Source of the DNA: Candidatus Omnitrophota bacterium | GTDB taxonomy: Bacteria; Omnitrophota; Gorgyraeia; Tantalellales; Tantalellaceae | Reading direction: 5' to 3' | NCBI GenBank assembly: GCA_049642065.1 | Contig: JBAROK010000002.1 | Span: 5,892-69,891 of the forward strand | Length of the DNA stretch: 64,000 nucleotides | Part shown: one piece after another, positions 1 to 18,347 of the stretch | Position numbering within the stretch: the first letter of the stretch is position 1 | Layout of the letters: every line of letters begins with the position of its first letter | Program-made: the position numbers and the translations under genes | Notes under the pieces: model-generated | Database searches by the model: none | The model's input: only the letters and a program-made list of their open reading frames with translations | Told to the model about the DNA's origin: nothing

Positions 1-95
1 TGGTGGACGAAGACGGGACATTGGCGGGAGTCATCGACAGATTTTGTATTATAGATAAGATATTATTTTTCTAAAAACAGGATGTAGGGTTAAAG

Positions 96-1409: not shown

Positions 1410-1415
1410 AAGTAC

Positions 1416-1443
1416 AAATCGTGGTGAAATCGTGGTGAAATGG
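1416..1443. repeat. short tandem repeat (aaatcgtggtg)x2 plus partial third copy
   Basis: Direct 11-nt tandem duplication seen just downstream of the permease stop codon, in the 255-nt leader region of the DEAD-box helicase gene. Confidence 0.5.
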
Positions 1444-1664
1444 CGATTTTAAGCACGAAAAGCAGTCCCTTCCGGCACCTCCACCATATCATTTGTATGA
1501 AAAATCCGACTTCAAATATTGAGATCGGGTTTTTTGTTGTAACATCACACCTGTATATATATGAAGCTTTTACCCGGGGTTTAGTGTAAAATAGTGGCAG
1601 TTACAATGTACAGTGACGAAGCAGATAACTCATATCGAATAAAAAAACAAGGAGTAAGGATATA

Positions 1665-2885: not shown

Positions 2886-2908
2886 TATAAAGGATGTTTT
2901 CTAATAAA

Positions 2909-2942
2909 AGCCTGGTTAATTCTTATAACCGGGCTTTTTGTT
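2909..2942 (+). terminator. rho-independent terminator after helicase gene
   Basis: Hairpin agcctggtt..aaccgggct followed by TTTTTG. Confidence 0.5.
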
Positions 2943-2956
2943 ATTAAGATGACGGT

Positions 2957-4069
2957 TTGACGATTAGAAAGACAAACGGTACAATACCTTATATGAAAAG
3001 ATATATCATATGCAGTTTATTTATGATAGCGATATTGGTCGCACTTAACATATTTACTGTTTCTTTTGCGCAAGAAAAAGAAGGAGCTTCTACGGGTATG
3101 GAAAAAGCAATCTTTGCCGGAGGGTGTTTTTGGTGTATGGAACCGCCTTTTGAGCAATTAGACGGTGTAGTGGATGTGGCTGCCGGGTACACGGGTGGGG
3201 ATAATGAGATGCCAAGTTACGAAGATGTTTCTTCCGGGATAACAGGTCATGTCGAGGCGATTCAGATCACGTATGATCCATCGAAGATCTCTTATTCGGA
3301 ACTCCTTAAAGTGTTTTGGCAACAGATAGATCCGACGGATACCGGAGGACAGTTCGCGGACAGGGGATCTCAATACAAGACCGCTATTTTTTACCTTGAT
3401 GAAAACCAGAAGCGTCTTGCTGAAAAGTCCAAAGAAGAGCTTGAAGAATCCGGGAAGTTCGATAAACCTATTGCTACCAAGATAATCAAGGCATCTGAAT
3501 TCTATGAAGCGGAAGATTACCACCAGGATTATTACAAGAAGAACCCCTTGAAGTATGGATCTTACAAGGTGGGTTCTGGAAGAAGTCAGTATATTAAAGA
3601 TAAATGGAGCGATAAAACGGATAAAAAATACAGTAAACCGACCAAAGAAGAGCTAAAAAAGAAGTTAACACCGCTTCAGTACAGGGTAACGCAGGAGGAA
3701 GGAACGGAGAGACCATTCGATAACGAGTATTGTGATAATAAAAAAGAAGGTATATACGTTGATATAGTCTCGGGAGAACCTCTCTTTATATCACTTGATA
3801 AGTACGATTCCCGGACAGGCTGGCCGAGTTTCACCAAACCGTTGGAACCGGAGAATATCGTGGAAAAAGAAGACCGGAATTTGTCAGGGATACGCACAGA
3901 ACTCAGAAGCAAAGAAGGCGATTCGCATCTTGGCCACGTGTTCAATGACGGTCCGGGCCCGGAGGGCCTGCGTTACTGCATAAATTCAGCCGCTCTGAGG
4001 TTCATACCCAAGGAAGATCTGGGAAAAGAAGGATATGGCGAGTACAAAGTACTTTTTGAGAACAAATGA
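2957..4069 (+). CDS. msrAB: bifunctional peptide methionine sulfoxide reductase MsrA-MsrB fusion with N-terminal signal peptide
   Basis: GCFWC active-site motif of MsrA (GGCFWCMEP) and RYCINSAAL motif of MsrB in the C-terminal half. Signal-peptide-like [27 protein letters not shown] suggests the true start is probably ATG 2993. Confidence 0.85.
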
Positions 4070-4395
4070 AGAAATGTCCAGGCTGTAAAAGAACATATGA
4101 TGATACATGGAAGGTGTGTCTCTACTGTAACAAAAGATTAGCGTCCTCAGAAGAGATCGCCGGAGAGTTCTATCTGGGCGATATTGGGTCCCCTAGAGAT
4201 AAATTCCTGATCGTCGTGTATTCGATCATACTGATAATCATGACGCCGCTACTCATACTGCTTGTATACCTGACTTATTTCAGCGACATGGATCTGGGCT
4301 TTCGCAAAAGTGAAGACACGCAGCTTCAGCAAGCTATATATTTTGACGAAGAGGAAGAGAAAGACAAAGAAGGTAAGAGGGGAAAGAAGAGATAA
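4066..4395 (+). CDS. zinc-ribbon (CxxC..CxxC) membrane protein, hypothetical
   Basis: N-terminal [18 protein letters not shown] followed by one TM helix and an acidic/lysine tail. Start overlaps the msrAB stop (ATGA). Confidence 0.45.
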
Positions 4396-4462
4396 CCAAT
4401 TTACATGATATCCGCACAGTTTATCCTTTATCCTTTACCGTTTATCCATTATAATATCAACC

Positions 4463-5263
4463 ATGAAATCTCTGAAGAATAGGCCCATAGGTATATTCGA
4501 TTCTGGAGTTGGCGGACTTACCGTCGCTAGAAGTGTACGGAAAGAGCTTCCGGATGAAGATATCATATATTTCGGAGATACCGCCAGAGTCCCGTATGGC
4601 AACAAGTCAAAAGATACCATAATACGTTTTTCACGCGAGATCATGTCATTCATGATGGATATGAACGTCAAAATGGTGGTTATCGCTTGCAATACGGCAT
4701 CCAGTCTTAGTCTTGCTTCACTGAAAAGATATTACAGTATACCGGTAGTTGGTGTTATAAATCCCGGAGTGGAAGAAGCTCTTCGCCTTTCAAAAAGCGG
4801 CAGGATAGGTGTTATCGGGACCAGCTCCACTGTATCAAGCGGCACTTATGGAAAGGAACTTAAAAGGAACGATCCTTCTTGCAAAGTGTTCTCAAAAAGC
4901 TGTCCACTTTTTGTGCCGCTGGTAGAGAACAGGTTCTTTTCTTCGCCTGTAACCCGTCAGGTAGCGGGCATGTATCTTAAGGACCTGAAAAAGAAAAAGA
5001 TCGATACGCTTATACTCGGATGCACGCATTATCCGATCCTTAAGACCGTTATCGGAAAGACAATGGGGAGCACAAAACTGGTAGATTCTTCATTAGCGGT
5101 CGCTAAGTATGTAAAAAAGATATTAGAGAAAGACGATCTTAAAACCTTGAGCAAGAAAAAAGGCAAGACCAGATATTACGTAAGCGATGATCCTAAGGGA
5201 TTCAGCAAAGTAGCGGGTATTTTTCTTAAAGAGAAAATAAAAGCTAATAAGGCGAATTTATGA
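4463..5263 (+). CDS. murI: glutamate racemase
   Basis: IGIFDSGVGGLTV, VIACNTAS and GCTHYP motifs. Confidence 0.85.
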   Translation: MKSLKNRPIGIFDSGVGGLTVARSVRKELPDEDIIYFGDTARVPYGNKSKDTIIRFSREIMSFMMDMNVKMVVIACNTASSLSLASLKRYYSIPVVGVINPGVEEALRLSKSGRIGVIGTSSTVSSGTYGKELKRNDPSCKVFSKSCPLFVPLVENRFFSSPVTRQVAGMYLKDLKKKKIDTLILGCTHYPILKTVIGKTMGSTKLVDSSLAVAKYVKKILEKDDLKTLSKKKGKTRYYVSDDPKGFSKVAGIFLKEKIKANKANL

Positions 5264-6108
5264 GCACAAGAAATATCAATGTCAAAGAAGTAGCCAGGGC
5301 TGTTGAAGAGCTTTTTATCGAAGCTAATACAGTTCTGAGGCAGGATGTTGTTAGCGCTTTGAAGAGGCTTGCCGAAGAAGAGAAAAACCCCAAAGCTAAG
5401 AAGATGCTGGAAATTCTGGTTGAAAATTCTAAAATAGCGGAAAAGAAAAGTATGCCGTTATGCCAGGACACAGGTTTAGCAGTTGTGTTCTTAAATATCG
5501 GTAGGGACGTTGTTTTTACTGAGGGGTATATAAACGAAGCTGTTGATAAAGGTGTCCTTAACGCTTATGAAAAAGGTTTCTTGCGTAAGTCTATTGTTAA
5601 GGATCCGGTCTTAAGGGGTAATACCGGAACAAATACGCCGGCTTTTATGCATATTGAGATAGTTCCTGGCAATAAAGTAGAGATCATTGTTCTGCCCAAA
5701 GGGTTCGGAAGCGAAAATAAAAGCGGTCTAGCCATGCTGAACCCTACGGCAGGTGAAGACGCTATCGTAGATTTTTGTGTAGAAGTGGTCCGGAAAGCAG
5801 GACCTGATGCGTGTCCTCCGTATGTTCTAGGCGTGGGGATAGGTGGTACAGCAGAGGTGTGCGGATTATTGGCAAAAAAAGCACTTACTAGACCCATAGA
5901 TTCACGTAATCCGCAGGAGCATATAGCCCGCCTTGAGGATGAGATAGAAAAGAAAGTCAAGGAGCTGGAGATAGGTGTCATGGGCTTGGGTGGTATTTCC
6001 ACTGTAATGGGAGTGAACATTGAAATCGCTCCGACACATATCGCGGGTTTGCCGGTTGCGGTGAATCTTTCATGTCATGCCCTAAGAAGCGCCCGTACGG
6101 TTATATGA
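5260..6108 (+). CDS. Fe-S hydro-lyase alpha subunit (class I fumarate hydratase / L(+)-tartrate dehydratase alpha)
   Basis: CQDTGLAVVF catalytic region typical of FumA N-terminal/TtdA type. Overlaps the murI stop. Confidence 0.8.
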   Translation: MSTRNINVKEVARAVEELFIEANTVLRQDVVSALKRLAEEEKNPKAKKMLEILVENSKIAEKKSMPLCQDTGLAVVFLNIGRDVVFTEGYINEAVDKGVLNAYEKGFLRKSIVKDPVLRGNTGTNTPAFMHIEIVPGNKVEIIVLPKGFGSENKSGLAMLNPTAGEDAIVDFCVEVVRKAGPDACPPYVLGVGIGGTAEVCGLLAKKALTRPIDSRNPQEHIARLEDEIEKKVKELEIGVMGLGGISTVMGVNIEIAPTHIAGLPVAVNLSCHALRSARTVI

Positions 6109-6121
6109 GAAGAGGATTAAA

Positions 6122-6652
6122 GTGAAAAAGATCATTGCGCCATTAAAAGATGAGATTATAGCAGGGCTTGAAGCCGGGGAGGAGGTTCTTCTTTCCGGGG
6201 TTATCTATACAGCGAGAGATCAGGCGCATTTGAGAATGATTAACCTTATGGAAAAGGGTGAGGCTCTTCCTGTCGAGCTTGCAGGACAGGTGATATATTA
6301 TTGCGGGCCTACGCCTCCCGGTCCAAGAGCGATAGGTGCCTGTGGACCTACTACCTCTAGCCGTATGGATGCTTTCACTCCCGCGGTACTTGAGGCAGGA
6401 TTAAAGGGAATAATCGGTAAGGGCAAAAGGTCCGATAAAGTAAGAGAATCCATAAAAGATCATAAAGCAGTGTATTTTCTTGCGCCTGGTGGAGCGGGAG
6501 CTTATCTTAGCGAAAGGGTGAAAGCTTGCGAAGTCGTGGCATTTGAAGACTTGGGAGCCGAGGCGATCCATAAATTGCAGGTAGAAGATTTTCCGTTGAT
6601 TGTCGGCATAGACAGCAGTGGCAGGGATATGTATAAACCGGGAAGGGAATAG
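6122..6652 (+). CDS. Fe-S hydro-lyase beta subunit (class I fumarate hydratase beta)
   Basis: 176 aa immediately downstream of the alpha subunit; matches the FumA C-terminal/TtdB-type domain. Confidence 0.75.
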
Positions 6653-6653
6653 G

Positions 6654-7376
6654 ATGAGAAGCGACGATAGGGCAGCTAACAGTTTAAGAAAAATAAATAT
6701 CGAGAAGGATTATATTAAGTATCCAGAAGGGTCATGCCTTTTTGAAGTAGGTAATACCAAGGTTATCTGTACGGCCAGCGTGGAAGATGGCGTGCCTGTG
6801 TTTCTTAAAGGGCAGGGGACGGGATGGATAACCTCTGAGTATTCAATGTTGCCCCGCTCATGCCAGAAAAGAGTGGCAAGAGAATCTTCAAAAGGGAAGA
6901 AAGGCGGAAGAACCCACGAAATACAAAGGCTTATAGGGCGTGCTCTTCGTGGAGTTGTTGACCTGACCGCTCTTGGAGAGCGAACAATATGGATGGATTG
7001 TGATGTTATACAGGCGGATGGCGGTACCCGATGCGCAAGTATAACCGGTAGTTTCATCGCGTTATGTCTTGCGCTTGATCATTTAAAAAAACAAGGGGTG
7101 TTCGATAAGCTGCCTGTAAGACATTTCATAGCTGCAGTCAGCGTCGGAGTGGTAGACGGTAAGAGTCTGTTGGATCTTAATTATGAAGAAGATTCCAGGG
7201 CCGAAGTGGATATGAACGTTGTTATGACTGATTCGGATAAGTTCGTGGAAGTTCAGGGAACAGCTGAAAGGGAACCTTTTAGCCAGCCGGTCATGGATGA
7301 GATGATGCAGCTAGCCAAAGATGGCATAAAAAGTCTTGTTGATAAACAAAAAGAAGTGTTGAAAGGGGTAGTCTGA
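6654..7376 (+). CDS. rph: ribonuclease PH
   Basis: [12 protein letters not shown]...[22 protein letters not shown]-terminus is characteristic of RNase PH. The six-frame ORF extends to 6618, but ATG 6654 matches the conserved start. Confidence 0.85.
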
Positions 7377-7987
7377 TGCTGGAGATACTGGTGGCGACCC
7401 ATAATGTGAACAAGCGCCGCGAGATCAAAGCACTACTGAAGAATTTTAATAAACGAACAAGGGTCATGAACCTGGATGACCTTGATACCATGCCTCCTAT
7501 GATAGTGGAGGACGGTAAGACTTTCCGTCAGAATGCCGTCAAGAAAGCTGTAACGACTTCAAGGTTCTTTAACGGACTGGTAGTAGCGGATGATTCGGGG
7601 CTTGAAGCGGATGCTTTGAACGGTAAACCCGGGATCCGGTCCGCGCGGTTTGCCAGAGCGAAAGCTACGGATTCAGAAAACAACGAAAAGCTTCTCAAGC
7701 TGCTTGATAAAGTCCCCAAGAAAGACCGGAAGGCAAGGTTCGTTTGTAATATCGCGCTTGCTGCCGGTGGTATATTGCTTGATACTTTTGAAGGGACGAT
7801 CACAGGGAAGATACTTCGTTCTTCTAGGGGGAACAACGGGTTCGGGTATGATCCTGTTTTTGTTCCTGATGGTTATGATAAGACTTTCGCGGAAATGGCG
7901 CCTTCATATAAGAACAGGATCAGCCATCGGGGTATAGCTCTACGTCAACTCAAAAAAACTCTTAAAAAATACGTAGAAAAGAACTAA
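7376..7987 (+). CDS. rdgB: non-canonical purine NTP pyrophosphatase (RdgB/HAM1 family)
   Basis: ILVATHNVNKRREI N-terminus. The classical rph-rdgB adjacency with ATGA overlap. Confidence 0.85.
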   Translation: MLEILVATHNVNKRREIKALLKNFNKRTRVMNLDDLDTMPPMIVEDGKTFRQNAVKKAVTTSRFFNGLVVADDSGLEADALNGKPGIRSARFARAKATDSENNEKLLKLLDKVPKKDRKARFVCNIALAAGGILLDTFEGTITGKILRSSRGNNGFGYDPVFVPDGYDKTFAEMAPSYKNRISHRGIALRQLKKTLKKYVEKN

Positions 7988-7990
7988 ACC

Positions 7991-9607
7991 TTATTTAGTC
8001 CATTTAGGCTCTTTAAGGGTACCGGTTAGGCGAGTTTTACCCAGGAACCTTCCGAAACTGACAATAGCATTCCTTAAAGCGATCGGCCATTCTTCATCTT
8101 CTTCGGAAGGTGGGCCCAGCAGGCGGTTCTCGAAAAGGACATTGAGCTGGCCGTCAAAATCCATATATCCTTCACCGTTAATGGAGATATCCTCGCCGAG
8201 TAAGACGAGATCGTTGGTTTCAATACGGCGGTGCTTTATTTCAAAAGCCATGGAAGCGTTATCAATTTTCACGGGTTTAATAACGGGCACGAACCTTTGA
8301 GCGGCAGCGTATACGTCACCCAGAAGCGGGGTTAATAGAGGCATCAATCCGAGATCCGCATCTGAGATGGTAACCGTTCCGGTGCCTTCGGTAGTATCAA
8401 TATCCGTAGCGTATCCTTTCAGATCGAGGTTCAGCTGAAAGTTCCCGTAAACATTATCTTTGTTCCCGTTAAGGTCATACAGTAATCTCTCAAAATCCAT
8501 GTTATTCAGATCAAAACTGAACATGAACGGCAGGTCCTTTTCAAATAAATCCATTTTCAGTTTGCCGATAATCGTACCGCCGTAGATCACTCCGTTAATA
8601 AGAGGAGCGTCCAGCCTGCCATCAGTCACGGAAATTTTTGTCATTAGTTCTTTTATGCGGATCTTATCTATACTGAAATTAGTCGCTGAGATAGTAGAGC
8701 GGATCTCACATTTTTTTAAATCCATTTCTGTTGCACTAAAAAACAGGTTCGATTCTACGGATCCGGCCATGGGATATCTTCTGGCAAATTTTCCTATCTC
8801 TCCGGGCATAGCCGCGAAAGTTTCAAGTTCGGTGTTTATCGTACCGCCTACAGAACACTTAAAATCATCACCCCGAAAATCACGTACCTCACCCTTTAGG
8901 TCAAAACGGAGAGTGTAAAACATGCCCGTCAGTTTGTCTATGGTAAGATTATCCTCGTCTTTGATAAGGCTGGTGGTGAAGCCCAGGTTATCAGAACGCA
9001 CGGTAATGTCGTAGCCCAGATCTTTTATGTCTTGCCGGGTGAAGTCCGTAAGGTATTTTATGTTATTATGAGTAAGACGTATTTTTCCGCTAGAGATAGA
9101 CATTTTGTCTATCTCTAGTATCCCGAAGATATCCCGGAAAGTGAAGCTGGGGCTGCCCGCAACAGCTTCTATTATTGAAACCGAATAGATCAAGGCAGGA
9201 TCAAATATTTCCGCATGAGTTGGCGCCTTACGTGAAAGGGTGCGTAACGTCGCGTTGCAAAGAAGGTCCCCTGAATGCAACCCGTCCAGTATCATTGTGG
9301 TTTTAAGCTGTTTGTCTTTTATTAGAGAAAGGACGTCTAACGCGGTTGTTACGTTATTGATACCAATCAGAATATTCCCGGATCCGTCTTTTGATGAGAT
9401 AGTGACGTGGTCCAGTGATATCGATTGAAAGGGCACGTAACTTACAGAACCTATATTTACGGGATGTTCAAGTGCTTTGGATAATTCTGAAGCGATTCGC
9501 GTGCGCACTTCTTTATGGATATCCTCTTTATATATAGAATACAGTGTGACAAGTGCAAGCGCTGCTAAGAGGAATAAAAGTACTATTATTTTCAGAAAGG
9601 TCCTCAT
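7991..9607 (-). CDS. AsmA-like / DUF3971-type membrane-anchored outer-membrane biogenesis protein
   Basis: N-terminal TM anchor (MRTFLKIIVLLFLLAALALVTL), a long beta-rich body and an AsmA-like C-terminal region. Start chosen at the second Met (9607); the ORF extends to 9646. Confidence 0.4.
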   Translation of the reverse strand: MRTFLKIIVLLFLLAALALVTLYSIYKEDIHKEVRTRIASELSKALEHPVNIGSVSYVPFQSISLDHVTISSKDGSGNILIGINNVTTALDVLSLIKDKQLKTTMILDGLHSGDLLCNATLRTLSRKAPTHAEIFDPALIYSVSIIEAVAGSPSFTFRDIFGILEIDKMSISSGKIRLTHNNIKYLTDFTRQDIKDLGYDITVRSDNLGFTTSLIKDEDNLTIDKLTGMFYTLRFDLKGEVRDFRGDDFKCSVGGTINTELETFAAMPGEIGKFARRYPMAGSVESNLFFSATEMDLKKCEIRSTISATNFSIDKIRIKELMTKISVTDGRLDAPLINGVIYGGTIIGKLKMDLFEKDLPFMFSFDLNNMDFERLLYDLNGNKDNVYGNFQLNLDLKGYATDIDTTEGTGTVTISDADLGLMPLLTPLLGDVYAAAQRFVPVIKPVKIDNASMAFEIKHRRIETNDLVLLGEDISINGEGYMDFDGQLNVLFENRLLGPPSEEDEEWPIALRNAIVSFGRFLGKTRLTGTLKEPKWTK

Positions 9608-9705: not shown

Positions 9706-9782
9706 TGGCACGCCCGACAGGACTTGAACCTGTGACCCTCTGCTTAGAAGGCAGATGCTCTATCCAGCTGAGCTACGGGCGC
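9706..9782 (-). tRNA. tRNA-Arg (anticodon TCT)
   Basis: Cloverleaf by eye: acceptor GCGCCCG/CGGGCGT, anticodon loop CTTCTAA, TTCAAGT T-loop, encoded CCA. Confidence 0.8.
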
Positions 9783-9804
9783 ACGCTAAACAGGTATTAG
9801 TATG

Positions 9805-9888
9805 TGGTGCGGATGGAGGGACTCGAACCCACACGGTAAAACCACTGGCTCCTAAGGCCAGCGCGTCTGCCAGTTCCGCCACATCCGC
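9805..9888 (-). tRNA. tRNA-Leu (anticodon TAG)
   Basis: 84-nt class II tRNA. Acceptor GCGGATG/CATCCGC, anticodon loop CTTAGGA, long variable arm, encoded CCA. Confidence 0.8.
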
Positions 9889-9900
9889 TGGTATTATCAA

Positions 9901-9978
9901 TGGTCGGGAAGGTGGGATTCGAACCCACGACCCCCTGCTCCCAAAGCAGGTACGCTAGCCAAACTGCGCCACTCCCCG
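9901..9978 (-). tRNA. tRNA-Pro (anticodon TGG)
   Basis: 5' CGGGGAGTGGCGCAG typical of tRNA-Pro. Anticodon loop TTTGGGA, encoded CCA. Confidence 0.8.
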
Positions 9979-10030
9979 ATATGTAAGTATATATTGCTTT
10001 GAATATAAGTATATTCGCTACAAGTTTTCT

Positions 10031-10104
10031 AATTATAGCAACGTGATTTTTATAAGTCAACTTGCATTTTTTTAATTGACTTAAAGCTTTTAAGCACATA
10101 GAAT
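10031..10104. promoter_or_regulatory. divergent sigma70-like promoter pair sharing a palindromic -35 region
   Basis: Plus strand: TTGACT (10076-10081), 17-nt spacer, TAGAAT (10099-10104), driving tRNA-His. Minus strand: TTGACT (complement of 10055-10060), 18-nt spacer, TATAAT (complement of 10031-10036), driving the Pro-Leu-Arg tRNA cluster. The two -35 hexamers are parts of the palindrome aagtcaa...ttgactt. Confidence 0.4.
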
Positions 10105-10127
10105 AAGGATTCGTCAGAAGTTCACGT

Positions 10128-10204
10128 GGTGGGCGTAGCTCAGTTGGTAGAGCGCCTGACTGTGGCTCAGGCTGTCGTGGGTTCAAATCCCATCGCTCAC
10201 CCCA
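10128..10204 (+). tRNA. tRNA-His (anticodon GTG) with encoded G-1
   Basis: G-1 plus GTGGGCG acceptor, anticodon loop CTGTGGC, TTCAAAT T-loop, discriminator C, CCA. Confidence 0.85.
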
Positions 10205-10216
10205 GTTATATAAAAA

Positions 10217-10242
10217 AGCCGGTCAAAAGACCGGCTTTTTTG
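10217..10242 (+). terminator. rho-independent terminator after tRNA-His
   Basis: gccggtc-aaaa-gaccggc hairpin followed by TTTTTTG. Confidence 0.6.
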
Positions 10243-10305
10243 TTGGCACTCTTAAATCTCCCTTATTTCTTTACCTCCAGCCCTGCACTACGGTATAATA
10301 CCCGC

Positions 10306-11715
10306 ATGACGATTTTAAATAATATTAATTTTATTAGGCAAGTTGAAGATTATCTGTCAGAACACCTGCCCATAAGATTAGGGGTTAATAAAAAGAACGA
10401 ACTAGTGCGTCTGGTTTATGAGCTGTGCCGGGCAAACGATATGTCACTTCAGGAAGTGACGCGCCAGGCAGGTATAGCCTATCTTGCAGAAGAGGGGAAA
10501 AGCGAACTTTTCCACAAGGTTAAGAGCAGACTTCTCGAGTTAAGATATCCTTCCAAAAAAGAGGATGACGATCCGCATATAATGCCTTTCACGGCGCTTG
10601 AGTCTATCGGTGAAAGTATGCCATGGGACTTTGATATAAAACCCAAAAGAGCATTTATAGAACAAGATGTTCAGGATCTTGAATGGACAAGCTCTTTTAT
10701 GGCTAATTTCCCGGATGCCGAGGTAACCTTAGTGGATGATGCTAAAGGTCCTTTAAGATCTCTTTCGTCCAATCCGCTGGTTACTCAATATAACTCAAGG
10801 TGCGAGAACGTATTTGTTGTGAAGAATAAAGCAGCTTTTGTGAAAATATGTCCTTGTACGAAAAAAGCTCTAAGGTGCGGGTACACTATACTTAATTTAG
10901 GGTTTGGTTGCGCGATCGATTGTTCATATTGCTACCTGCAGCTTTACAGCAATTTTCCGGGGCTTATATTTCCCGCTAATATTGAAGATTATTATCCGCA
11001 CATAAAAGATCTTGATAAGAAAGTTTCTTCGAGGACAAGGATAGGAACGGGAGAGTTCACTGATTCCTTGTTTCTGGACAAGTATACCGGGTATTCTACG
11101 CATCTCGTGCCGTTCTTTAAGGGTATGAAGAACCTGGTTCTTGAACTAAAGACCAAAGCAGGGGATATAGACAACGTTCTTAAACAGGATGCGCATGATA
11201 ATGTAGTGGTATCTTGGTCGATGAATGCCCGCGAGATGGCGGAAAAATATGAAAAAGGAGCGATAACAATAGACGAAAGGATAGATGCTGTCCGGCAGGT
11301 GGTGAAGAAAGGTTTTAAGACGGGTTTTCATTTTGATCCCATCATCTTTTATGAAGGCTGGGAAGATGAGTACAAGGCCGTTGTTGAAGAGATATTTTCT
11401 GATAGGGATATTGCTCGGAACACTGCGTGGGTAAGCTTTGGAACGCTTCGTTACACGCCGGGACTTAAGCAGGTGGCGGAACAAAGGTTCACGGATAACG
11501 GGTTGTATTACACGGGAGAGTTTTTTGCTGACGTGGACGGAAAACTCAGGTATCCTAGAGAGCTAAGGATAGAGATGTACAACAAGATGATAGAGTGGAT
11601 AAGGTCCTACGATACTTCCGCATGGATATATCTTTGTATGGAACCGGAAGATCTCTGGGAAAAGACGATATTGACAAAGGAAGATTATTCTTACAACTGT
11701 AAGAGAAGGGGGTAA
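10306..11715 (+). CDS. radical SAM protein, spore-photoproduct-lyase (SplB/COG1533)-like, with ~190-aa N-terminal extension
   Basis: CxxxCxxC cluster motif GCAIDCSYCYLQ at nt ~10907-10940. The downstream region resembles the SplB/DNA photolyase-like radical SAM family. A TATAAT box at 10293-10298 sits 7 nt upstream of the ATG. The six-frame ORF start at 10126 is an artefact running through tRNA-His. Confidence 0.55.
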   Translation: MTILNNINFIRQVEDYLSEHLPIRLGVNKKNELVRLVYELCRANDMSLQEVTRQAGIAYLAEEGKSELFHKVKSRLLELRYPSKKEDDDPHIMPFTALESIGESMPWDFDIKPKRAFIEQDVQDLEWTSSFMANFPDAEVTLVDDAKGPLRSLSSNPLVTQYNSRCENVFVVKNKAAFVKICPCTKKALRCGYTILNLGFGCAIDCSYCYLQLYSNFPGLIFPANIEDYYPHIKDLDKKVSSRTRIGTGEFTDSLFLDKYTGYSTHLVPFFKGMKNLVLELKTKAGDIDNVLKQDAHDNVVVSWSMNAREMAEKYEKGAITIDERIDAVRQVVKKGFKTGFHFDPIIFYEGWEDEYKAVVEEIFSDRDIARNTAWVSFGTLRYTPGLKQVAEQRFTDNGLYYTGEFFADVDGKLRYPRELRIEMYNKMIEWIRSYDTSAWIYLCMEPEDLWEKTILTKEDYSYNCKRRG

Positions 11716-11718
11716 CAT

Positions 11719-12417
11719 ATGCGGGGTATAAGGGTTTTATTAACGGTTCTTTTAATCTTAGGCGTTTGTGGGGAGGTTATATCTCAGCCGGCCAGCCCGG
11801 AACCGGGCGAGACAATAGAGCTGCCTGATCCCAAGCATGAAGGGAGCATGTCAGTCGAAGAAGCTATATACAAACGCAGATCCATCCGGAATTTTAGTGA
11901 TGAAGCTCTTACTCTGCAGGAAGTGTCACAGCTTCTCTGGGCGGCCGGCGGACGGACGGTAGACGGGATGACGGGACCCACGCGTGCGTATCCTTCTGCC
12001 GGAGCTATTTATCCTCTTGAAGTGTATCTTGTCGCAGGTAACGTCGTGGGTTTGAACGACGGGGTTTATCGTTACGAGTGGCGGAAACATCAGCTTAAGC
12101 TGATAAAAAAAGGTGATCTCCGTGAACAGCTTTATAAAGCGGCGTTATCACAGAGGATGGTAGAAGTAGCACCGGCAACGATCGTTATTACGGCACAACA
12201 TGCGAAAACAGCCCGCAGGTACGGGCAGCGAGGGGTTACGCGTTATGTGAGTATGGATACGGGACACTTAGGCCAGAACATACATCTTCAGGCAGAGAGT
12301 ATGGGGCTAGGTACGGTTATGATAGGAGCTTTTATAGATAAGGATGTCGCAAAGGTGCTGGGTACTGAAGAGGAGATGCCGGTGTATATGATGCCGGTAG
12401 GGTATCCCAAAAAATAA
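11719..12417 (+). CDS. nitroreductase-family / SagB-type dehydrogenase-like flavoprotein with N-terminal signal peptide
   Basis: RRSIRNF motif and overall nitroreductase fold signatures. Hydrophobic N-terminus MRGIRVLLTVLLILGVCG. Confidence 0.6.
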   Translation: MRGIRVLLTVLLILGVCGEVISQPASPEPGETIELPDPKHEGSMSVEEAIYKRRSIRNFSDEALTLQEVSQLLWAAGGRTVDGMTGPTRAYPSAGAIYPLEVYLVAGNVVGLNDGVYRYEWRKHQLKLIKKGDLREQLYKAALSQRMVEVAPATIVITAQHAKTARRYGQRGVTRYVSMDTGHLGQNIHLQAESMGLGTVMIGAFIDKDVAKVLGTEEEMPVYMMPVGYPKK

Positions 12418-12429
12418 AGTTTTAAAAAC

Positions 12430-13527
12430 ATGGATCTATGTGAAATTGACAGAAAGCTAAGCGAGATGGCAGTAGGCGTTGATTTTTATCCTCACCTTAC
12501 GCCGGTCAACCGGGGCGTAGAGAAGGAGAAGTTCTTTGCTGCTCTTCGGGAAGGCGGTTGTTATAACCCGCAGTTCGTTTACGGAGAAAGGAATTTTGAA
12601 AACGAAAAGAAAACTCTTTTAGAGCTGCGGGATGCCCTCGATGAAACTGATATCTTGCAAAGGATTTTCGCGGAAAAGATAGAGTTCATGCTTACCGAAC
12701 TTGAGCTTTTGGAGTCTGGGGATGGTGATTTTGCGGATATTGCCCGGCGTTTGCACGGTGAGCCTACTGCCGAATGTACGGAAAATGCGGTAAGCATCTT
12801 GGCGGAGATAAAGAGCCGTGATTACGTATTCCCGGATGAGTCTATTGCACCGGAAGAGATGGCATCTATATTACGTGCAACGATAGATGAAAAAGGGCTC
12901 GACTGGACAGTGAAAGTAACTGATAAGATCATACCCAAGATGACGGTATCCGGTAAGGATAAGACGTTATACGTGAATTCGGGCATCAAGTATACCGAGG
13001 CGGAGGTCCAGAGGTTAAAGGTACATGAAGTTAAGGTGCATATTTTCAGGGGAGCTAACGGTGCCGCGCAGCCTTACAAGATATTTACCGAAGGTCTTGC
13101 CGGATATAACGAGACCGAGGAGGGGCTGGCTATCTTGCTGGAAGAGATGTCTGGATGCCTGGATGTCGATACCCGTCAGATGAAACTCTATGCGGGCAGG
13201 GCTTTGAGCGTTGATCTTTGTTTAAAAGGGTCGTTCTATGACGCTTATCTTGGATTAAGTGAATTTTTCCCGGATTACATGGCATACCGGCTGGTTGAAA
13301 GAGCTAAAAGAGGATTAAAGGATACTTCCCGGAAAGGATGCCTTACAAAAGGGTACCATTATATAAGCGGATGGAGAAAACTGCGTAAGTATATTGAAGA
13401 AGGCGGAGATTTGAGTATAATCTATTTGGGTAAGGTCAAGCTGGAGGATGCCAATATCGTAAAGGTTCTTGTGGATAAAGGTGTGCTCAAGCCGGCAAAG
13501 TATTTACCGGATTTAATAAACAAGTAA
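12430..13527 (+). CDS. QEGLA-motif protein (DUF1704; flavohemoglobin expression-modulating / putative Tyr-Phe carboxypeptidase-like family)
   Basis: Diagnostic motif GYNETEEGLAILLEE (QEGLA variant) at nt ~13111-13150. Length 365 aa is typical for the family. Confidence 0.6.
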   Translation: MDLCEIDRKLSEMAVGVDFYPHLTPVNRGVEKEKFFAALREGGCYNPQFVYGERNFENEKKTLLELRDALDETDILQRIFAEKIEFMLTELELLESGDGDFADIARRLHGEPTAECTENAVSILAEIKSRDYVFPDESIAPEEMASILRATIDEKGLDWTVKVTDKIIPKMTVSGKDKTLYVNSGIKYTEAEVQRLKVHEVKVHIFRGANGAAQPYKIFTEGLAGYNETEEGLAILLEEMSGCLDVDTRQMKLYAGRALSVDLCLKGSFYDAYLGLSEFFPDYMAYRLVERAKRGLKDTSRKGCLTKGYHYISGWRKLRKYIEEGGDLSIIYLGKVKLEDANIVKVLVDKGVLKPAKYLPDLINK

Positions 13528-13533
13528 ATATCT

Positions 13534-14982
13534 ATGAACAAGATCAGTGAATATTTACGTGATAAATACGGGCCTTGGGGATGGCTGGGGCAACGTGCGC
13601 ATGATGCTTGCGGGATAAACCAGGTTCTTCCGCTTGATTTCATTATAAGCTGCGATTACGGGACGGAGATCCCGTATTATTTCAGGCAAGAGGACGTTTA
13701 TTCCATTGAAAAAAAGAACGGTTTGCGTAAAGACTGGTCTAACGAAGACCTGAACACGAGCCTGAAAGGTAACCTGGGCCGGGAGATATCCGAAAGATGG
13801 AATAGTTATAACAGCAAGGTGAACCTGCTTTGTTACCGTTCGGTGAGGCGCCTTGAGAACGGTAAGGGCCGGTACCAGAAGAGGCCCAGGCTATTTGCTG
13901 TTCCACAGAGCCTGAAAAAACGTTTTGATAATAAAGCGCTTCTTCATAAGAATTTGACCAAGCTTTCCATGCCATGTATACCCGGTATGGTCGATAGGAT
14001 CGCAAAGGCTGATTTTAACGACTTACGCAAAATCCTGTCGCTTCCCTTTGTGGTACAGTTCCCTTACGGCTCAAGCGGCCATTATACTTTCGGTCTACGG
14101 GAAGAGAAAGATTATGACGAGCTGAGGAACGCTCATCCTGATGCTACCGCACTTATCAGAAGATATATAGACGGGTTTTCGCTGAACGTGAACGCCGTAA
14201 TAGTCTCTTCCGAGGAAGGCCCGCGTGTTATGTGTTCGTCCCCGTCGGTACAGATAACAGGCATTCCCGAATGCAGTAATTCACCGGCTTCCTTTTGCGG
14301 TAACGATTACGCGGCGGCCAAGGATCTTGACCGTTCTATCGTCAGGCAGGTTGAAACTCATATGCAAACCGTTGGCAAATGGATGGCCGCTTCGGGATTC
14401 AGGGGCATTTTCGGTATGGATTTTGTCCTAAAGGACGGCACTATTTATCCGGTAGAAATAAACCCGAGGTTTCAGAACTCGACTTCGCTTTACACGGTAC
14501 TAAGCTCGATGTCACGGTCCCGTAAAGGAACACTTTTCTTGCTTCATATAGCGGAATTCCTGCAAAAAGAAGACAAGTTTCTGCGTGAATATTTAAAAGA
14601 GTTCCCGGAACGTGAGCTCATGCGGCCTTTGAACGGTAGCCAGCTGATATTACATAACCGTATGCGGAAGAATATAATAACAGGGGAACTGGCTCCGGGA
14701 GTGTATAAGAGGGACGGCCGTGAACTTAAACTCGTTAGACAAGGTGCTTCGCTTAATGATTGTCGTAACGGCGGGGAACTATTGATCACCTGTGGTGTCC
14801 CCAGACCCTATCTTACGATTGAACCTAACGCGGCGCTTTTAAAAATCCAGATGCGCGATAATATACTGGACGTTTCTAATAAAAGGCGGCTTACGCCTGA
14901 GGCGAAGAAAGTGGTATCTTTAGTGTACGAAAAAATAGGGTTAAAAAGCGCGAATAAAATAGAAGTAGCCAGATCTGTTTGA
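13534..14982 (+). CDS. ATP-grasp family ligase (RimK/alpha-L-glutamate-ligase-like), 482 aa
   Basis: C-terminal ATP-grasp signature GIFGMDFVLKDGTIYPVEINPRF. 6-nt gap to the upstream gene. Confidence 0.5.
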   Translation: MNKISEYLRDKYGPWGWLGQRAHDACGINQVLPLDFIISCDYGTEIPYYFRQEDVYSIEKKNGLRKDWSNEDLNTSLKGNLGREISERWNSYNSKVNLLCYRSVRRLENGKGRYQKRPRLFAVPQSLKKRFDNKALLHKNLTKLSMPCIPGMVDRIAKADFNDLRKILSLPFVVQFPYGSSGHYTFGLREEKDYDELRNAHPDATALIRRYIDGFSLNVNAVIVSSEEGPRVMCSSPSVQITGIPECSNSPASFCGNDYAAAKDLDRSIVRQVETHMQTVGKWMAASGFRGIFGMDFVLKDGTIYPVEINPRFQNSTSLYTVLSSMSRSRKGTLFLLHIAEFLQKEDKFLREYLKEFPERELMRPLNGSQLILHNRMRKNIITGELAPGVYKRDGRELKLVRQGASLNDCRNGGELLITCGVPRPYLTIEPNAALLKIQMRDNILDVSNKRRLTPEAKKVVSLVYEKIGLKSANKIEVARSV

Positions 14983-16577
14983 TTTTTAAGAAAGGTAAGA
15001 ATATGATAGAACGTGATCCAAAATATTATGTTACTGGATATGACGGGTCTGACCCGCGCCAGGCACCGTTCTATCTCAATGTGAATGAATTTGACGGTAC
15101 GCGAGGGGATTTCAATACCGGTCTTATTAATAAATTCAATGATTTTCTTAAAAGTCATGATATTACGAAGTCTTATAAGCTTAAGAGCACTTCTGCAAAA
15201 GACGGGAAAGTGCCCTCAAAGATAGTTGTAGTGAATGCATCACATGATGACCTGCCCACATCATACGAAACGGCAAGGGTGTTTGATAACCTTTGCGGCA
15301 GGAAAGGATACAAAACCCAAGCGGTGGTCGTTAACAGCCGTGAGGAACTGTTAAAAGAAGTTAACGCCGACCCTGAAGGCACTTTGCTTATGAGCCAGTG
15401 TGTTGATAAGAACGTTTATAACGTTGCTTTGGCTGAGGAACTTGGGCAAAGAGGTACAGTTACTGTGCCGGGCATTGTCACCGCGCCCGGGAGCATTTTT
15501 TCTGATAAGGATTCTACATACAGGCTTCTTTCGGAAGAAGGTAAGGATTGGAATAAAGTTGCTAGGTACAAAAAGATCCCGGTGGATGATAAGACGGTCG
15601 AAGAAGTAGTAGAAGGTATCTTTAGCGCCATAGATGAACTCGAACACTTAACGGGTGATATAACTTTTTTTGTCAAACCTCATGAAGGGGGAGGCGGGCT
15701 CGGAGGATTCCGTATAACCAAGGTCAAGGAAGGGTATATCATACCGGATCTTTCTAAAGTATCCGGGGACCTTTCAGAGATACATCCCACGTTTATAGAT
15801 TTTGATATATCGAACGATGCTAAATTGCGGGAATTGTTATGGATATACCGCCTTTTTGCCGGGGATGAGAAGATGGCAAAGAACTATTTGCAGACGAAAT
15901 TACCGCTTCTCGAAAAGGATGAAAAAGAGGCGATCGGTATACTTAAAGAATATCTGGTGGGAAGCGAGCTTAAACGCCATCAAAAGCTTGCCGGTATGAT
16001 GCTTAAACCTGAAGAAGCCTGCCGGAAACTGGTCGAAGCGATAAAGATATTTGAAGAAAAGTTTTACAGGAGATATGTGCCTCTGGTGAACGAACATATA
16101 GATTTCGGGCTTTGGGGACTCAGGGCGCATTACCGGCTTTCTAAAGACGGACCGGTGCTGGAGACAATGTATCACCGCGTGTTTCAGCTAGGGTTCACCG
16201 AAGAAGGGCTGGGATACGTTGGATCCGACAATATTTCCAACAAGCAGACCGGTGATCTTGAGATAACCAGGCTGGGGCCCGTGAACGAAATAATGCTGGA
16301 AGCTATCGGGGGGGAAGATGCGCTTTTTGATACGCTTTTCAAGGGTGCCGAAGCGTTAGCGGAACTTACAAGACTTGTTCCGGAGAAAGACAGGGGATAT
16401 GTCCCGCTTCGCCTGCAGCTTGACCTGGCTACAATATCGCGTCGTATCGGGGAAGGTAATGCCGATACTGCGCGTGGTCTTTGTCTTGCGTCACGCTGGA
16501 CGGAATTCGTCCGTAATGCCGAAGAATGGCTTGAAGACAGTCTGGCGTATTACGCGTGGAAGAAGGAGCTGAATTGA
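14979..16577 (+). CDS. second ATP-grasp-like ligase (GshB/RimK-like glycine-rich loop), 532 aa
   Basis: FFVKPHEGGGGLGGFRI resembles the GshB/RimK flexible loop (VLKPLDGMGGASIFRV). ATGA overlap with the upstream gene. Confidence 0.45.
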   Translation: MIFKKGKNMIERDPKYYVTGYDGSDPRQAPFYLNVNEFDGTRGDFNTGLINKFNDFLKSHDITKSYKLKSTSAKDGKVPSKIVVVNASHDDLPTSYETARVFDNLCGRKGYKTQAVVVNSREELLKEVNADPEGTLLMSQCVDKNVYNVALAEELGQRGTVTVPGIVTAPGSIFSDKDSTYRLLSEEGKDWNKVARYKKIPVDDKTVEEVVEGIFSAIDELEHLTGDITFFVKPHEGGGGLGGFRITKVKEGYIIPDLSKVSGDLSEIHPTFIDFDISNDAKLRELLWIYRLFAGDEKMAKNYLQTKLPLLEKDEKEAIGILKEYLVGSELKRHQKLAGMMLKPEEACRKLVEAIKIFEEKFYRRYVPLVNEHIDFGLWGLRAHYRLSKDGPVLETMYHRVFQLGFTEEGLGYVGSDNISNKQTGDLEITRLGPVNEIMLEAIGGEDALFDTLFKGAEALAELTRLVPEKDRGYVPLRLQLDLATISRRIGEGNADTARGLCLASRWTEFVRNAEEWLEDSLAYYAWKKELN

Positions 16578-18280
16578 ATTCTATCTGGATAGTACTCATC
16601 TCGATCGCAGCGTTCTGGGCGGCCTATAATTTCTACGGCAATTTCATTGCCAGGAAGATCTTCCATTCTAGAAAAGAGAATCCGGTGCCCAGCGAAGAGC
16701 TCAGGGATGATATAGATTACGTGCCAACGAACAAGGAAGTTCTTTTTGGCCATCATTTTGCTTCGATAGCAGGTACCGGGCCTATAGTAGGTCCGGCGAT
16801 CGCTATTATATGGGGCTGGGTCCCGGCACTTGTCTGGATAATATTCGGTTCTATCTTCGCGGGAGCTGTCCATGACTACGCTGCGCTTATGATGTCTACC
16901 AGGAAGAAAGGTGTATCTATCGGTGAACTTTCCAAAGATGTTATCAACCCGAGGGTCAGGACACTTTTTCTTTTTGTGATACTTTTCGCTTTATGGATAG
17001 TAGTGGCGATATTCGGGATGGTCATTGCCGTTATTTTTAAGATGTATCCCCAGGCCGTTTTTCCCGTATGGATACAGATACCGATCGCCGTTAGTGTGGG
17101 ATGGCTAGCCTACAGAAAAGGGTGGAACATTACGGCCATGTCGATAATAGCGGTGCTTCTTATGTACGCCTCGATCTTTGTCGGTGTTAATATGCCGCTT
17201 AGTATGCCCGGGTTGTGGATACTTACACCGATGGCCGTATGGATAATCATACTTTTTATCTACGCCTATATAGCTTCAGTCCTTCCGGTGTGGACGCTTC
17301 TTCAGCCGCGTGATTACGTCAATTCTCATCAGTTGATCGTTGGTATTGTACTTATAGTGCTGGGTGTTCTGGTTGCGAATCCCCCTATGGTGGCGCCGGC
17401 CGTACAGCTCGCGCCTAAAGGTGCGCCTCCGATAATGCCGTTTCTTTTTATTACGATCGCTTGCGGGGCTATCTCCGGGTTCCATTCGCTTGTAAGTTCG
17501 GGTACCAGCTCAAAACAGCTTAAGAACGAAGAAGATATACATTTCGTGGCGTATGGCGGTATGCTTACAGAAGGGCTTGTTGGAGTGCTTGTTATAATCG
17601 CGGTAGGGGCAGGTATCGGCATGTTCGTGAAGACCGATAGCGGTGAAGTCTTGCGAGGTGTTGCCGCGTGGCAGCATCATTATTCCAGCTGGGAATCAGC
17701 TCAGGGTCTTACCGCGAAAGTAGCGGCGTTCGTTAACGGGTCGGCGAATATGCTGACGGCACTTAAGATACCGCTTAAATACGGTCAGGCTATTATAGGC
17801 GTTTTGATAGCGTCTTTTGCCGGCACCACACTTGATACCGCGACGCGTATACAGCGTTATGTGGTCACGGAACTGGCGACAGATTATCGCATTAAACCTC
17901 TTCAGAAAAGGTATCCAGCGACTGCGCTTGTCGTCCTGGCAGCGGCAGCTCTTGCTTTCAGTGAGGGCAGCGGTATGGGAGCGCTTCTTTTATGGCCGCT
18001 TTTCGGTATCAGTAACCAGCTTCTTGCGGGACTGGTACTTCTTGTGGCTTCTATCTATATCATAAAAGAAGAAAAGACAAGTGCCTGGCCTACTGCGATT
18101 CCGATGATCTTTATGATAATTACCTCAAGCTGGGCGATGGTGGTTGGGCTATTACATTTTTTTCATACTGGGTCGCATCTCCGGCTCGTTATCGGGTCGA
18201 TACTGTTCGTGCTTGAAATATGGATGATAATTGAAGCGGTTCTGTATATGAAGAAATGGAAGATTAATGCGCGCCTGTAG
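16556..18280 (+). CDS. cstA: carbon starvation protein A (CstA-family peptide/pyruvate transporter)
   Basis: FGHHFASIAGTGPIVGPAIAIIWGW and an 18-TM-like profile. GTG at 16556 or, more likely, TTG at 16574 preceded by AAGGAG. The stop codon lies inside tRNA-Arg. Confidence 0.85.
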   Translation: MEEGAELNSIWIVLISIAAFWAAYNFYGNFIARKIFHSRKENPVPSEELRDDIDYVPTNKEVLFGHHFASIAGTGPIVGPAIAIIWGWVPALVWIIFGSIFAGAVHDYAALMMSTRKKGVSIGELSKDVINPRVRTLFLFVILFALWIVVAIFGMVIAVIFKMYPQAVFPVWIQIPIAVSVGWLAYRKGWNITAMSIIAVLLMYASIFVGVNMPLSMPGLWILTPMAVWIIILFIYAYIASVLPVWTLLQPRDYVNSHQLIVGIVLIVLGVLVANPPMVAPAVQLAPKGAPPIMPFLFITIACGAISGFHSLVSSGTSSKQLKNEEDIHFVAYGGMLTEGLVGVLVIIAVGAGIGMFVKTDSGEVLRGVAAWQHHYSSWESAQGLTAKVAAFVNGSANMLTALKIPLKYGQAIIGVLIASFAGTTLDTATRIQRYVVTELATDYRIKPLQKRYPATALVVLAAAALAFSEGSGMGALLLWPLFGISNQLLAGLVLLVASIYIIKEEKTSAWPTAIPMIFMIITSSWAMVVGLLHFFHTGSHLRLVIGSILFVLEIWMIIEAVLYMKKWKINARL

Positions 18281-18347
18281 CTCAGTTGGATAGAGCAACT
18301 GGCTTCGAACCAGTAGGTCGCAGGTTCGAGTCCTGCCGGGCGCGCCA
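18271..18347 (+). tRNA. tRNA-Arg (anticodon TCG)
   Basis: Acceptor GCGCCTG/CGGGCGC, anticodon loop CTTCGAA, TTCGAGT T-loop, CCA. The six-frame ORF 18286.. start is an artefact of this tRNA. Confidence 0.8.

Follow-up and report, generated by a model that had tools for sequence, protein, structure and literature searches.

A predicted MATCAP-type peptidase and two ATP-grasp enzymes: a probable three-gene module in Omnitrophota and other uncultured bacteria

The window analyzed here is a 64,000-nucleotide (nt) stretch of a Candidatus Omnitrophota bacterium genome (GenBank assembly GCA_049642065.1, contig JBAROK010000002.1, positions 5,892 to 69,891 of the forward strand); identical contigs are scaffold_211 of ENA ERZ23498717 and one in NCBI GCA_049642105.1. 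Between two tRNA genes it carries six closely packed genes, g1 to g6. Three of these, encoding a predicted zinc carboxypeptidase of the MATCAP/DUF1704 family (g3) and two proteins with ATP-grasp folds (g4 and g5), probably form the functional unit, a self-contained and horizontally distributed three-gene module. This triad is confined to uncultured, mostly anaerobic lineages. The features of the locus, in coordinates of the window, are as follows.

10129-10204, plus strand: tRNA-His(GTG), the upstream boundary (ARAGORN and Rfam)
10212-10241, plus strand: terminator-like hairpin 3′ of tRNA-His, comprising an A-run, GCCGGTC-aaaa-GACCGGC, and TTTTTT (read from the sequence)
10270-10299, plus strand: promoter-like TTTACC-18 nt-TATAAT, a consensus match only (scan and sequence)
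10306-11715, plus strand: g1, radical S-adenosylmethionine (SAM) protein of the spore photoproduct lyase (SPL) family, 469 amino acids (PF20903)
11719-12417, plus strand: g2, SagB-type protein of nitroreductase fold, 232 amino acids (TIGR03605 and PF00881)
12430-13527, plus strand: g3, predicted MATCAP/DUF1704-type zinc carboxypeptidase, 365 amino acids (PF08014)
13534-14982, plus strand: g4, predicted ATP-grasp ligase, 482 amino acids (ATP-grasp_3 model and fold)
15003-16577, plus strand: g5, ATP-grasp-fold protein, 524 amino acids (predicted fold)
16574-18280, plus strand: g6, CstA-family transporter, 568 amino acids (PF02554)
18271-18347, plus strand: tRNA-Arg(TCG), the downstream boundary and a conserved anchor (ARAGORN and Rfam)

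A first-pass annotation, made from the letters of the window, had given the positions of these open reading frames (ORFs), the flanking tRNA-His and tRNA-Arg(TCG) genes, the hairpin, and the TATAAT box, and all were confirmed by ORF and tRNA calls and by the sequence itself. Its family assignments (SPL-type radical SAM, SagB/nitroreductase, DUF1704, CstA) were likewise recovered as matches to the hidden Markov models (HMMs) PF20903, TIGR03605, PF08014, and PF02554. It had also described gaps of 3, 12, and 6 nt followed by two overlaps. The gaps between g1 and g2 (3 nt), g2 and g3 (12 nt), and g3 and g4 (6 nt) are exact and g5 and g6 do overlap, by 4 nt, but g4 and g5 are separated by 20 nt, the apparent overlap stemming from a mechanical TTG start at 14979. 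The start of g5 was set at the ATG at 15003, behind GAAAGG, where the conserved N-terminus of its homologs (MIERDP...) begins. The g5/g6 overlap is a TTGA (16574-16577) in which the TTG start of g6, behind AAGGAG, lies over the stop of g5, and this arrangement suggests coupled translation. At the upstream end, the hairpin was absent from the output of the consensus scan and was spotted in the sequence directly. The TATAAT box (10294-10299) stops 6 nt short of the g1 ATG (10306) with no Shine-Dalgarno sequence visible, and the g1 mRNA may therefore be leaderless. In this genome, a single transcript probably covers all six genes. At the downstream end, tRNA-Arg(TCG) shares 10 nt with the 3′ end of g6 (18271-18280), so that its 5′ end takes in the final three sense codons of the CstA gene together with the TAG stop; should the two be transcribed together, maturation of the tRNA by RNase P would sever the g6 mRNA within its final codons.

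The peptidase gene g3 matches PF08014 (MATCAP/DUF1704) at 172.9 bits against a cut-off of 27, with residues 34-363 covered, and aligns with human MATCAP (7z5g, E value 4.4e-10) over a span that includes both the HExxxH and the EEGLA motifs. The HExxxH zinc motif reads HEVKVH (residues 199-204), EEGLA occupies residues 230-234, and H199, E200, H204, and E231 are each kept at 97% or more among 37 triad-linked orthologs. The protein stays below the threshold of the QEGLA equivalog TIGR02421 (183.3 bits versus 338.65). To our knowledge, enzymes of the MATCAP family have been characterized experimentally in eukaryotes only, on tubulin tails. The MATCAP/TMCP enzymes remove C-terminal tyrosine and glutamate and shorten polyglutamate chains, and all characterized members of the family trim protein tails (PMC10499314). 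By homology, g3 is predicted to be a trimming enzyme. None of g3, g4, and g5 has a signal-like N-terminus, as judged by eye.

The first-pass annotation placed two ATP-grasp ligases of 482 and 532 residues after the peptidase. The 482-residue g4 is supported by an HMM match (ATP-grasp_3, 42.5 bits, cut-off 23.2), whereas the ATP-grasp character of g5, which has 524 residues, emerged from its predicted fold only. Structure prediction, suggested at the outset as a check on the two proteins, returned ATP-grasp folds for both, in different clades. The model of g4 (predicted local distance difference test score, pLDDT, 92.6) falls in the PylC/PurK/L-amino-acid-ligase clade, grouping with PylC, PurK, PurD, BesA, and Lal, and its closest folds are the PylC, BesA, and Lal enzymes. 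The motifs GSSG and EINPR are conserved in g4, for which an alignment of 25 sequences was built (A2).

No sequence model in Pfam or NCBIfam matches g5, a profile search of PDB sequences found nothing either, and it is called ATP-grasp because comparison of predicted folds alone revealed it as such. The AlphaFold2 model (pLDDT 88.9, predicted template modeling score 0.90) has a three-domain ATP-grasp fold, on the strength of which g5 is assigned to the LysX/ArgX/RimK/GshB/Ddl structural clade; its additional 250 or so residues are mostly helical. The likeness to RimK and LysX is structural only, the family models of both in Pfam and NCBIfam leaving g5 unmatched. Four motifs are invariant in an alignment of 23 g5 sequences (A1): FVKP-x-EGGGGLGGFR, DFGxWGLRxH, SDNISNKxTG, and GEGNADTARG, of which SDNISNKxTG forms a low-confidence loop in the model. 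The invariant residues K226, G230-G236, D475, E485, and N487 sit in plausible positions under an inferred mapping rather than a superposition, and the motifs may thus correspond to the ATP-binding lysine, the glycine-rich loop, and the E-x-N metal site. When 1.84 billion representative proteins were searched exhaustively with a g5 profile, 46 matches came back, about 15 of them full length, and no large set of other ATP-grasp proteins was drawn in; by this measure the g5 family is small and isolated. The top-ranking hits of g5 carry the name Omnitrophota. That the two proteins might be ordinary GshB or RimK housekeeping ligases had been raised as a possible refutation. They are not: neither g4 nor g5 reaches the equivalog cut-off of any characterized family in NCBIfam or matches a Ddl HMM, and the g5 family is as small as just described. 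The idea that g4 and g5 are paralogs was discarded on an hhalign probability of 12% and their different structural clades; their profiles are not detectably related beyond the fold.

The conservation of the locus was surveyed in 67 g5-encoding loci, found by scanning one genome per species, on which the proteins of the window were mapped by tblastn and ORF clustering. Adjacency was counted over those dereplicated loci with enough upstream sequence, and taxon labels, some of which may be wrong, were taken from the record titles of metagenome-assembled genomes (MAGs). The counts are given below, a further 55 metagenome loci having been surveyed separately.

g4 directly upstream of g5: Omnitrophota 28/28, others 25/26, total 53/54
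g3 upstream of g4: Omnitrophota 19/24, others 24/25, total 43/49
g1 upstream: Omnitrophota 15/16, others 0/17
g2 upstream: Omnitrophota 10/16, others 0/17
g6 downstream, adjoining g5: Omnitrophota 21/24, others 0/26

The coupling of a DUF1704 gene with ATP-grasp ligases, as first proposed, is thus a recurrent arrangement, and the pattern of g3/g4/g5 adjacency was repeated in the 55 metagenome loci. A survey had also been suggested to see whether the radical SAM, nitroreductase, DUF1704, and two ATP-grasp genes recur as a set: g3-g4-g5 does recur across phyla, and g1 and g2 accompany the triad only in Omnitrophota. The order g3-g4-g5 is constant in Omnitrophota, in Desulfobacterales and related deltaproteobacteria, and in loci labeled Elusimicrobiota, KSB1, Chlamydiota, and Ca. 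Theseobacter, the Chlamydiota locus having been seen by direct look-up. The flanks differ among these lineages, with citrate synthase, Usp, and LemA genes beside the triad in Desulfobacterales, CobO in Elusimicrobiota, and a PD-(D/E)XK nuclease in Chlamydiota. No conserved fourth gene was found across phyla in the triad flanks examined, which argues that the substrates of the triad should be common cell components.

Two loci suggest how the module is gained and lost. In L074, an Omnitrophota locus, g2-g6 are missing between g1 and tRNA-Arg(TCG), and in L070, a Desulfobacterales MAG, only the C-terminal third of g5 survives (1826-2188, 47% identity), between a citrate synthase gene and a GGDEF gene, apparently as a degraded copy of the module. 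Together the gap and the remnant indicate that the triad is present or absent as a block, at sites bounded by lineage-specific anchors. Citrate synthase itself, whose gene precedes g3 by 10 nt in L072 and adjoins the triad in 17 Desulfobacterales loci, was considered as a pathway partner and is treated instead as a local anchor, persisting as it does beside the g5 remnant in L070. A small FmdB-type zinc-ribbon protein of 87-92 residues with a lysine-rich C-terminal tail is encoded a few nt after g5 in just two related loci (L080, 9587-9850; L030, 11154-11432).

Within Omnitrophota, the peptidase is the variable member of the triad. Five of the 24 dereplicated loci lack g3 and keep g1, g4, and g5, as do five metagenome loci, in part perhaps the very same contigs. 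Dispensability of this kind fits a role in turnover or trimming and not one in biosynthesis.

The radical SAM gene g1 matches the SPL family (PF20903, E value 3.5e-23; 82.5 bits, cut-off 27) and does not reach the spore photoproduct lyase equivalog TIGR04070 (101.1 bits, cut-off 400). Its GCAIDCSYCYLQ aligns with GCMGHCHYCYLQ of the Geobacillus SPL, the CxxxCxxC motif is present, and in the alignment with 4rh0 it has no cysteine in the stretch preceding the conserved TSD/FTD motif. The catalytic hydrogen-donor cysteine of SPL (Cys140/141) may thus be missing from g1, depending on where that position falls in the 4rh0 chain and on whether the chain is mutated there. TIGR04070 aligns to g1 from residue 112 onward, so the unexplained N-terminal extension, initially put at about 190 residues, measures about 110. 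This domain (10306-10640) is well conserved in Omnitrophota, with invariant G26, N28, K29, R35, E39, G64, K73, and R80; searches of Pfam and the PDB, with the fragment itself and with a profile of 14 sequences, found nothing that matches it, and by eye it appears helical, perhaps a helix-turn-helix. Outside Omnitrophota, the long form of g1 hardly occurs.

The surroundings of g1 show it to be a synteny anchor outside the conserved module. The backbone order in Omnitrophota, from tRNA maps and gene calls, is a tRNA cluster (His, Pro, Leu, Arg-TCT), g1, and either the cassette or nothing, followed by tRNA-Arg(TCG), NadE, GH130, tRNA-Lys, tRNA-Gly, PTS-EIIA, and a CofD-like gene; tRNA-Arg(TCG) lies downstream of the cassette, on either strand, in 18 of 18 scanned Omnitrophota loci. 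The end of g1 in L074 (10377) and the start of tRNA-Arg(TCG) (10480) have nothing of g2-g6 between them, and in L075 g1 is present and the cassette is likewise missing. Since g1 is kept at the same site without the cassette, it is an anchor and not a partner. A single hint of a link between g1 and DNA damage comes from L076, where genes for a LexA-like S24 peptidase and a Y-family polymerase precede it. The upstream tRNA cluster (Arg-TCT, Leu-TAG, Pro-TGG, and His-GTG at 9706-10204 of the window) is conserved across Omnitrophota; from one genome to another, either the entire cluster or just tRNA-His can be inverted (L006, L008, L010, L013, L022, L023, L028, L032, L033).

The flavoprotein-like g2 matches the SagB domain TIGR03605 (140.5 bits, cut-off 78.4) as well as Nitroreductase PF00881. 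Its N-terminus (11719-11810) is hydrophobic and resembles a Sec-type signal, with no twin-arginine motif, and such an N-terminus is carried by all 10 Omnitrophota orthologs found, in agreement with the signal peptide first reported; g2 thus appears to be exported. An exported flavin-binding SagB-like protein is unusual for the family. Lying outside the cytoplasm, g2 would be unlikely to act on the product of cytoplasmic ligases. The gene was seen only in loci that also have g3, and it is an optional, Omnitrophota-only accessory. The transporter gene g6 is likewise an Omnitrophota-specific accessory of the module. It matches CstA (PF02554) at 489.9 bits and falls short of the equivalog for E. 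coli CstA, a pyruvate/proton symporter (NF011590, 282.6 bits versus 1188), so its substrate is not fixed by the family match.

These observations bear on the possibility that all six genes make up one pathway resembling those for ribosomally synthesized and post-translationally modified peptides (RiPPs), in which ligation and trimming would be combined with tailoring by the radical SAM and SagB-like proteins and with transport by CstA. The tight spacing (gaps of 3, 12, 6, and 20 nt and one 4-nt overlap), the single promoter-like site, the restriction of g2 to loci with g3, and the maintenance of the order g1 to g6 across Omnitrophota at only 50-60% protein identity all speak for such a pathway. 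However, g1 and g2 are absent from 17 of 17 triad loci outside Omnitrophota with enough upstream sequence, g1 stays without the cassette and in L076 keeps the company of LexA-like and polymerase genes, and g1 belongs to the SPL family rather than to the peptide-maturase radical SAM enzymes. The g2 protein has its conserved signal-like N-terminus and no YcaO/cyclodehydratase partner among the six genes, although YcaO was not sought in the remainder of the window. As NadE and GH130, which flank the cassette, are also syntenic across Omnitrophota, conserved order in that phylum alone is no proof of a functional link. A nearby precursor-peptide ORF had been suggested as worth seeking, and the intergenic gaps of the operon (3-20 nt) have no room for one; neither a precursor peptide gene nor a macrocyclase-type ATP-grasp enzyme, as expected of a graspetide or other RiPP, was found here. 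A single six-gene pathway is accordingly regarded as very unlikely. Of the ligation/trimming cycle with redox tailoring put forward by the first-pass annotation, ligation and trimming survive as the natural reading, and tailoring does not, g1 and g2 being Omnitrophota-only and g2 apparently exported. The locus also illustrates how tight operon packing can mislead: a radical SAM protein and a flavoprotein resemble tailoring enzymes, yet here they are lineage-specific neighbors.

The triad is best read as a build-and-trim module for a short alpha-linked peptide or a C-terminal tail. ATP-grasp ligases make amides via acyl-phosphate intermediates, and the two unrelated ligases would form amide bonds one after the other by this route. 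As far as substrates, step order, and the role of CstA can be inferred, g4 would make the first amide bond by joining a pair of small substrates, either two amino acids or an amino acid and a metabolite, because it resembles small-molecule and L-amino-acid ligases (PylC, Lal, BesA). Because of its resemblance to the LysX/RimK/GshB/Ddl clade, g5 would then add one or more residues onto the alpha-carboxyl end of the g4 product, and g3 would take C-terminal residues off again, setting the length or the turnover of the product. In Omnitrophota, CstA might import building blocks or recover breakdown products, and the SPL-like radical SAM protein g1 would have an independent function of its own and merely share the promoter.

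A free short peptide, probably acidic and glutamate-containing, is favored over a protein tail as the product, a preference held tentatively and just short of an even call. It is favored because g4 groups with small-molecule ligases, because the use of two unrelated ligases one after the other recalls the synthesis of peptides in two steps, because the module brings no carrier or target gene along with it, and because the peptidase is dispensable in some Omnitrophota loci. Several points weigh against this interpretation of the triad. CstA accompanies the triad in one phylum only. Conservation within Omnitrophota and Desulfobacterales is partly inherited synteny, which brings the independent observations nearer to five or six lineages than to the locus count. 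Moreover, the labels taken from MAG titles may in places be wrong, with several Omnitrophota-like contigs labeled 'Planctomycetia'. Among these, L005, L010, L013, L015, L020, L021, and others have an Omnitrophota-type cassette and backbone under the title 'uncultured Planctomycetia bacterium' and are probably mislabeled bins.

A serious rival, possible if rather doubtful, is a writer/eraser system for protein C-terminal tails, in which g5, perhaps with g4, would add glutamate or another residue to the C-terminus of a housekeeping protein whose gene lies elsewhere, such as ribosomal protein S6 or a cytoskeletal protein, and g3 would remove it, much as RimK/RimB do on RpsF or TTL/TTLL and MATCAP/CCP on tubulin. 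The peptidase is a true homolog of human MATCAP with its zinc-site motifs intact, the characterized members of that family all trim protein tails (PMC10499314), and the best structural matches of g5 act on protein tails too. A bacterial precedent pairs a glutamate ligase with a tail-specific protease (PMC7343187), and the missing conserved fourth gene fits a universal housekeeping target as well. On the other side, g4 groups structurally with the small-molecule ligases PylC, PurK, PurD, BesA, and Lal, known tail systems need no second, unrelated ligase, and no LysW-like acidic-tail carrier lies nearby. A gene for ribosomal protein S6 was not found in the window or in any of the other loci examined. 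As a candidate for a LysW-like carrier, the sole small zinc-ribbon gene beside g5 (L030 and L080) was set aside, its tail being lysine-rich and not acidic. A bolder version is judged unlikely: a prokaryotic 'C-terminal tail code', in which the triad would lengthen the C-terminus of a conserved bacterial protein in a reversible way, with both ATP-grasp enzymes as writers and the MATCAP-type peptidase as eraser. If true, such modules in bacteria would be the origin of the eukaryotic MATCAP detyrosinase/deglutamylase.

Among known systems, the gammaproteobacterial QEGLA trio, comprising the TIGR02421 QEGLA protein, the TIGR02291 RimK-related ligase, and an inactive transglutaminase with seven transmembrane segments, is similar in that a DUF1704/MATCAP-type peptidase is encoded beside an ATP-grasp ligase. 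It differs in that g3 is no TIGR02421 equivalog, neither ligase matches the RimK-related model, the host phyla are other ones, and the single ligase is replaced by two that belong to different clades, g5 being the member of an undescribed family. The transglutaminase reported absent from the operon is indeed missing: neither it nor the TIGR02291 ligase had a match in NCBIfam or Pfam among the six proteins or the called genes of related loci.

In the RimABK system of Pseudomonas, the RimK glutamate ligase and the RimB polyglutamate-specific protease act on RpsF (PMC7343187). RimB is called a retropepsin-like protease (PMC11957791), unlike the MATCAP-type zinc enzyme g3, and the triad lacks a RimA-like phosphodiesterase and has the second ligase g4. 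The eukaryotic tubulin tail cycle (TTL/TTLL with MATCAP/TMCP and CCP; PMC10499314) shares with the triad the principle that an ATP-grasp enzyme writes and a carboxypeptidase erases, and g3 is a true sequence homolog of its peptidase with the same HExxxH/EEGLA motifs. In contrast to the LysW/LysX-ArgX carrier system, the triad has no LysW-like carrier or lysine/arginine biosynthesis genes nearby, and g5 is about 250 residues longer than LysX/ArgX, with helical additions. The ATP-grasp enzymes of two-step small-peptide synthesis (the L-amino-acid ligases BacD and RizA, PylC, BesA, GshB) are similar in that g4 folds most like PylC, BesA, and Lal and GshB is among the matches of g5, although g4 and g5 fall below the cut-off of every characterized family model. 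The synthases of N-acetylaspartylglutamate and beta-citrylglutamate, RIMKLA/B, work with glutamate carboxypeptidase II and provide a precedent for pairing a ligase with a metallocarboxypeptidase in turnover.

Editing of cell-wall precursors in the manner of VanA/VanX/VanY, in which a Ddl-like ligase would make an alternative stem dipeptide and the zinc peptidase would remove the normal terminus, is considered extremely improbable, as neither ligase matches the Ddl HMM, no mur, van, or regulatory genes occur in the flanks examined, and MATCAP-type enzymes are not known to act on peptides of D-amino acids. A defense system or phage origin was also rejected, with no PADLOC match among the six proteins and no g5 relative turning up in IMG/VR.

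That DUF1704 peptidases are paired with ATP-grasp ligases is already known as a genomic theme, though an unexplained one, and among the papers searched none links DUF1704, QEGLA, or MATCAP to bacterial ATP-grasp genes; the amidoligase survey of Iyer et al. 2009 may mention a related neighborhood. What is new here is the fixed triad, the orphan ATP-grasp family of g5, and the restriction to uncultured, mostly anaerobic lineages. For the bacterial homologs of MATCAP (DUF1704, QEGLA), the locus offers a compact, transferable unit that locks such a peptidase to two specific ligases, and with three soluble proteins, ATP, and amino acids it makes a small, tractable system for finding the bacterial substrate of a MATCAP-type enzyme.

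Two further observations concern the wider surroundings. Directly upstream of the g1 ortholog in L074, on a 746-kb Omnitrophota contig, positions 1-8846 are taken up by an ORF of more than 3,586 residues that has no Pfam match. Throughout the window (1-64000), each 2-kb bin has a positive GC skew, cumulative skew climbs steadily, and the long ORFs are mostly on the plus strand; the window in its entirety appears to belong to a single leading-strand replichore.

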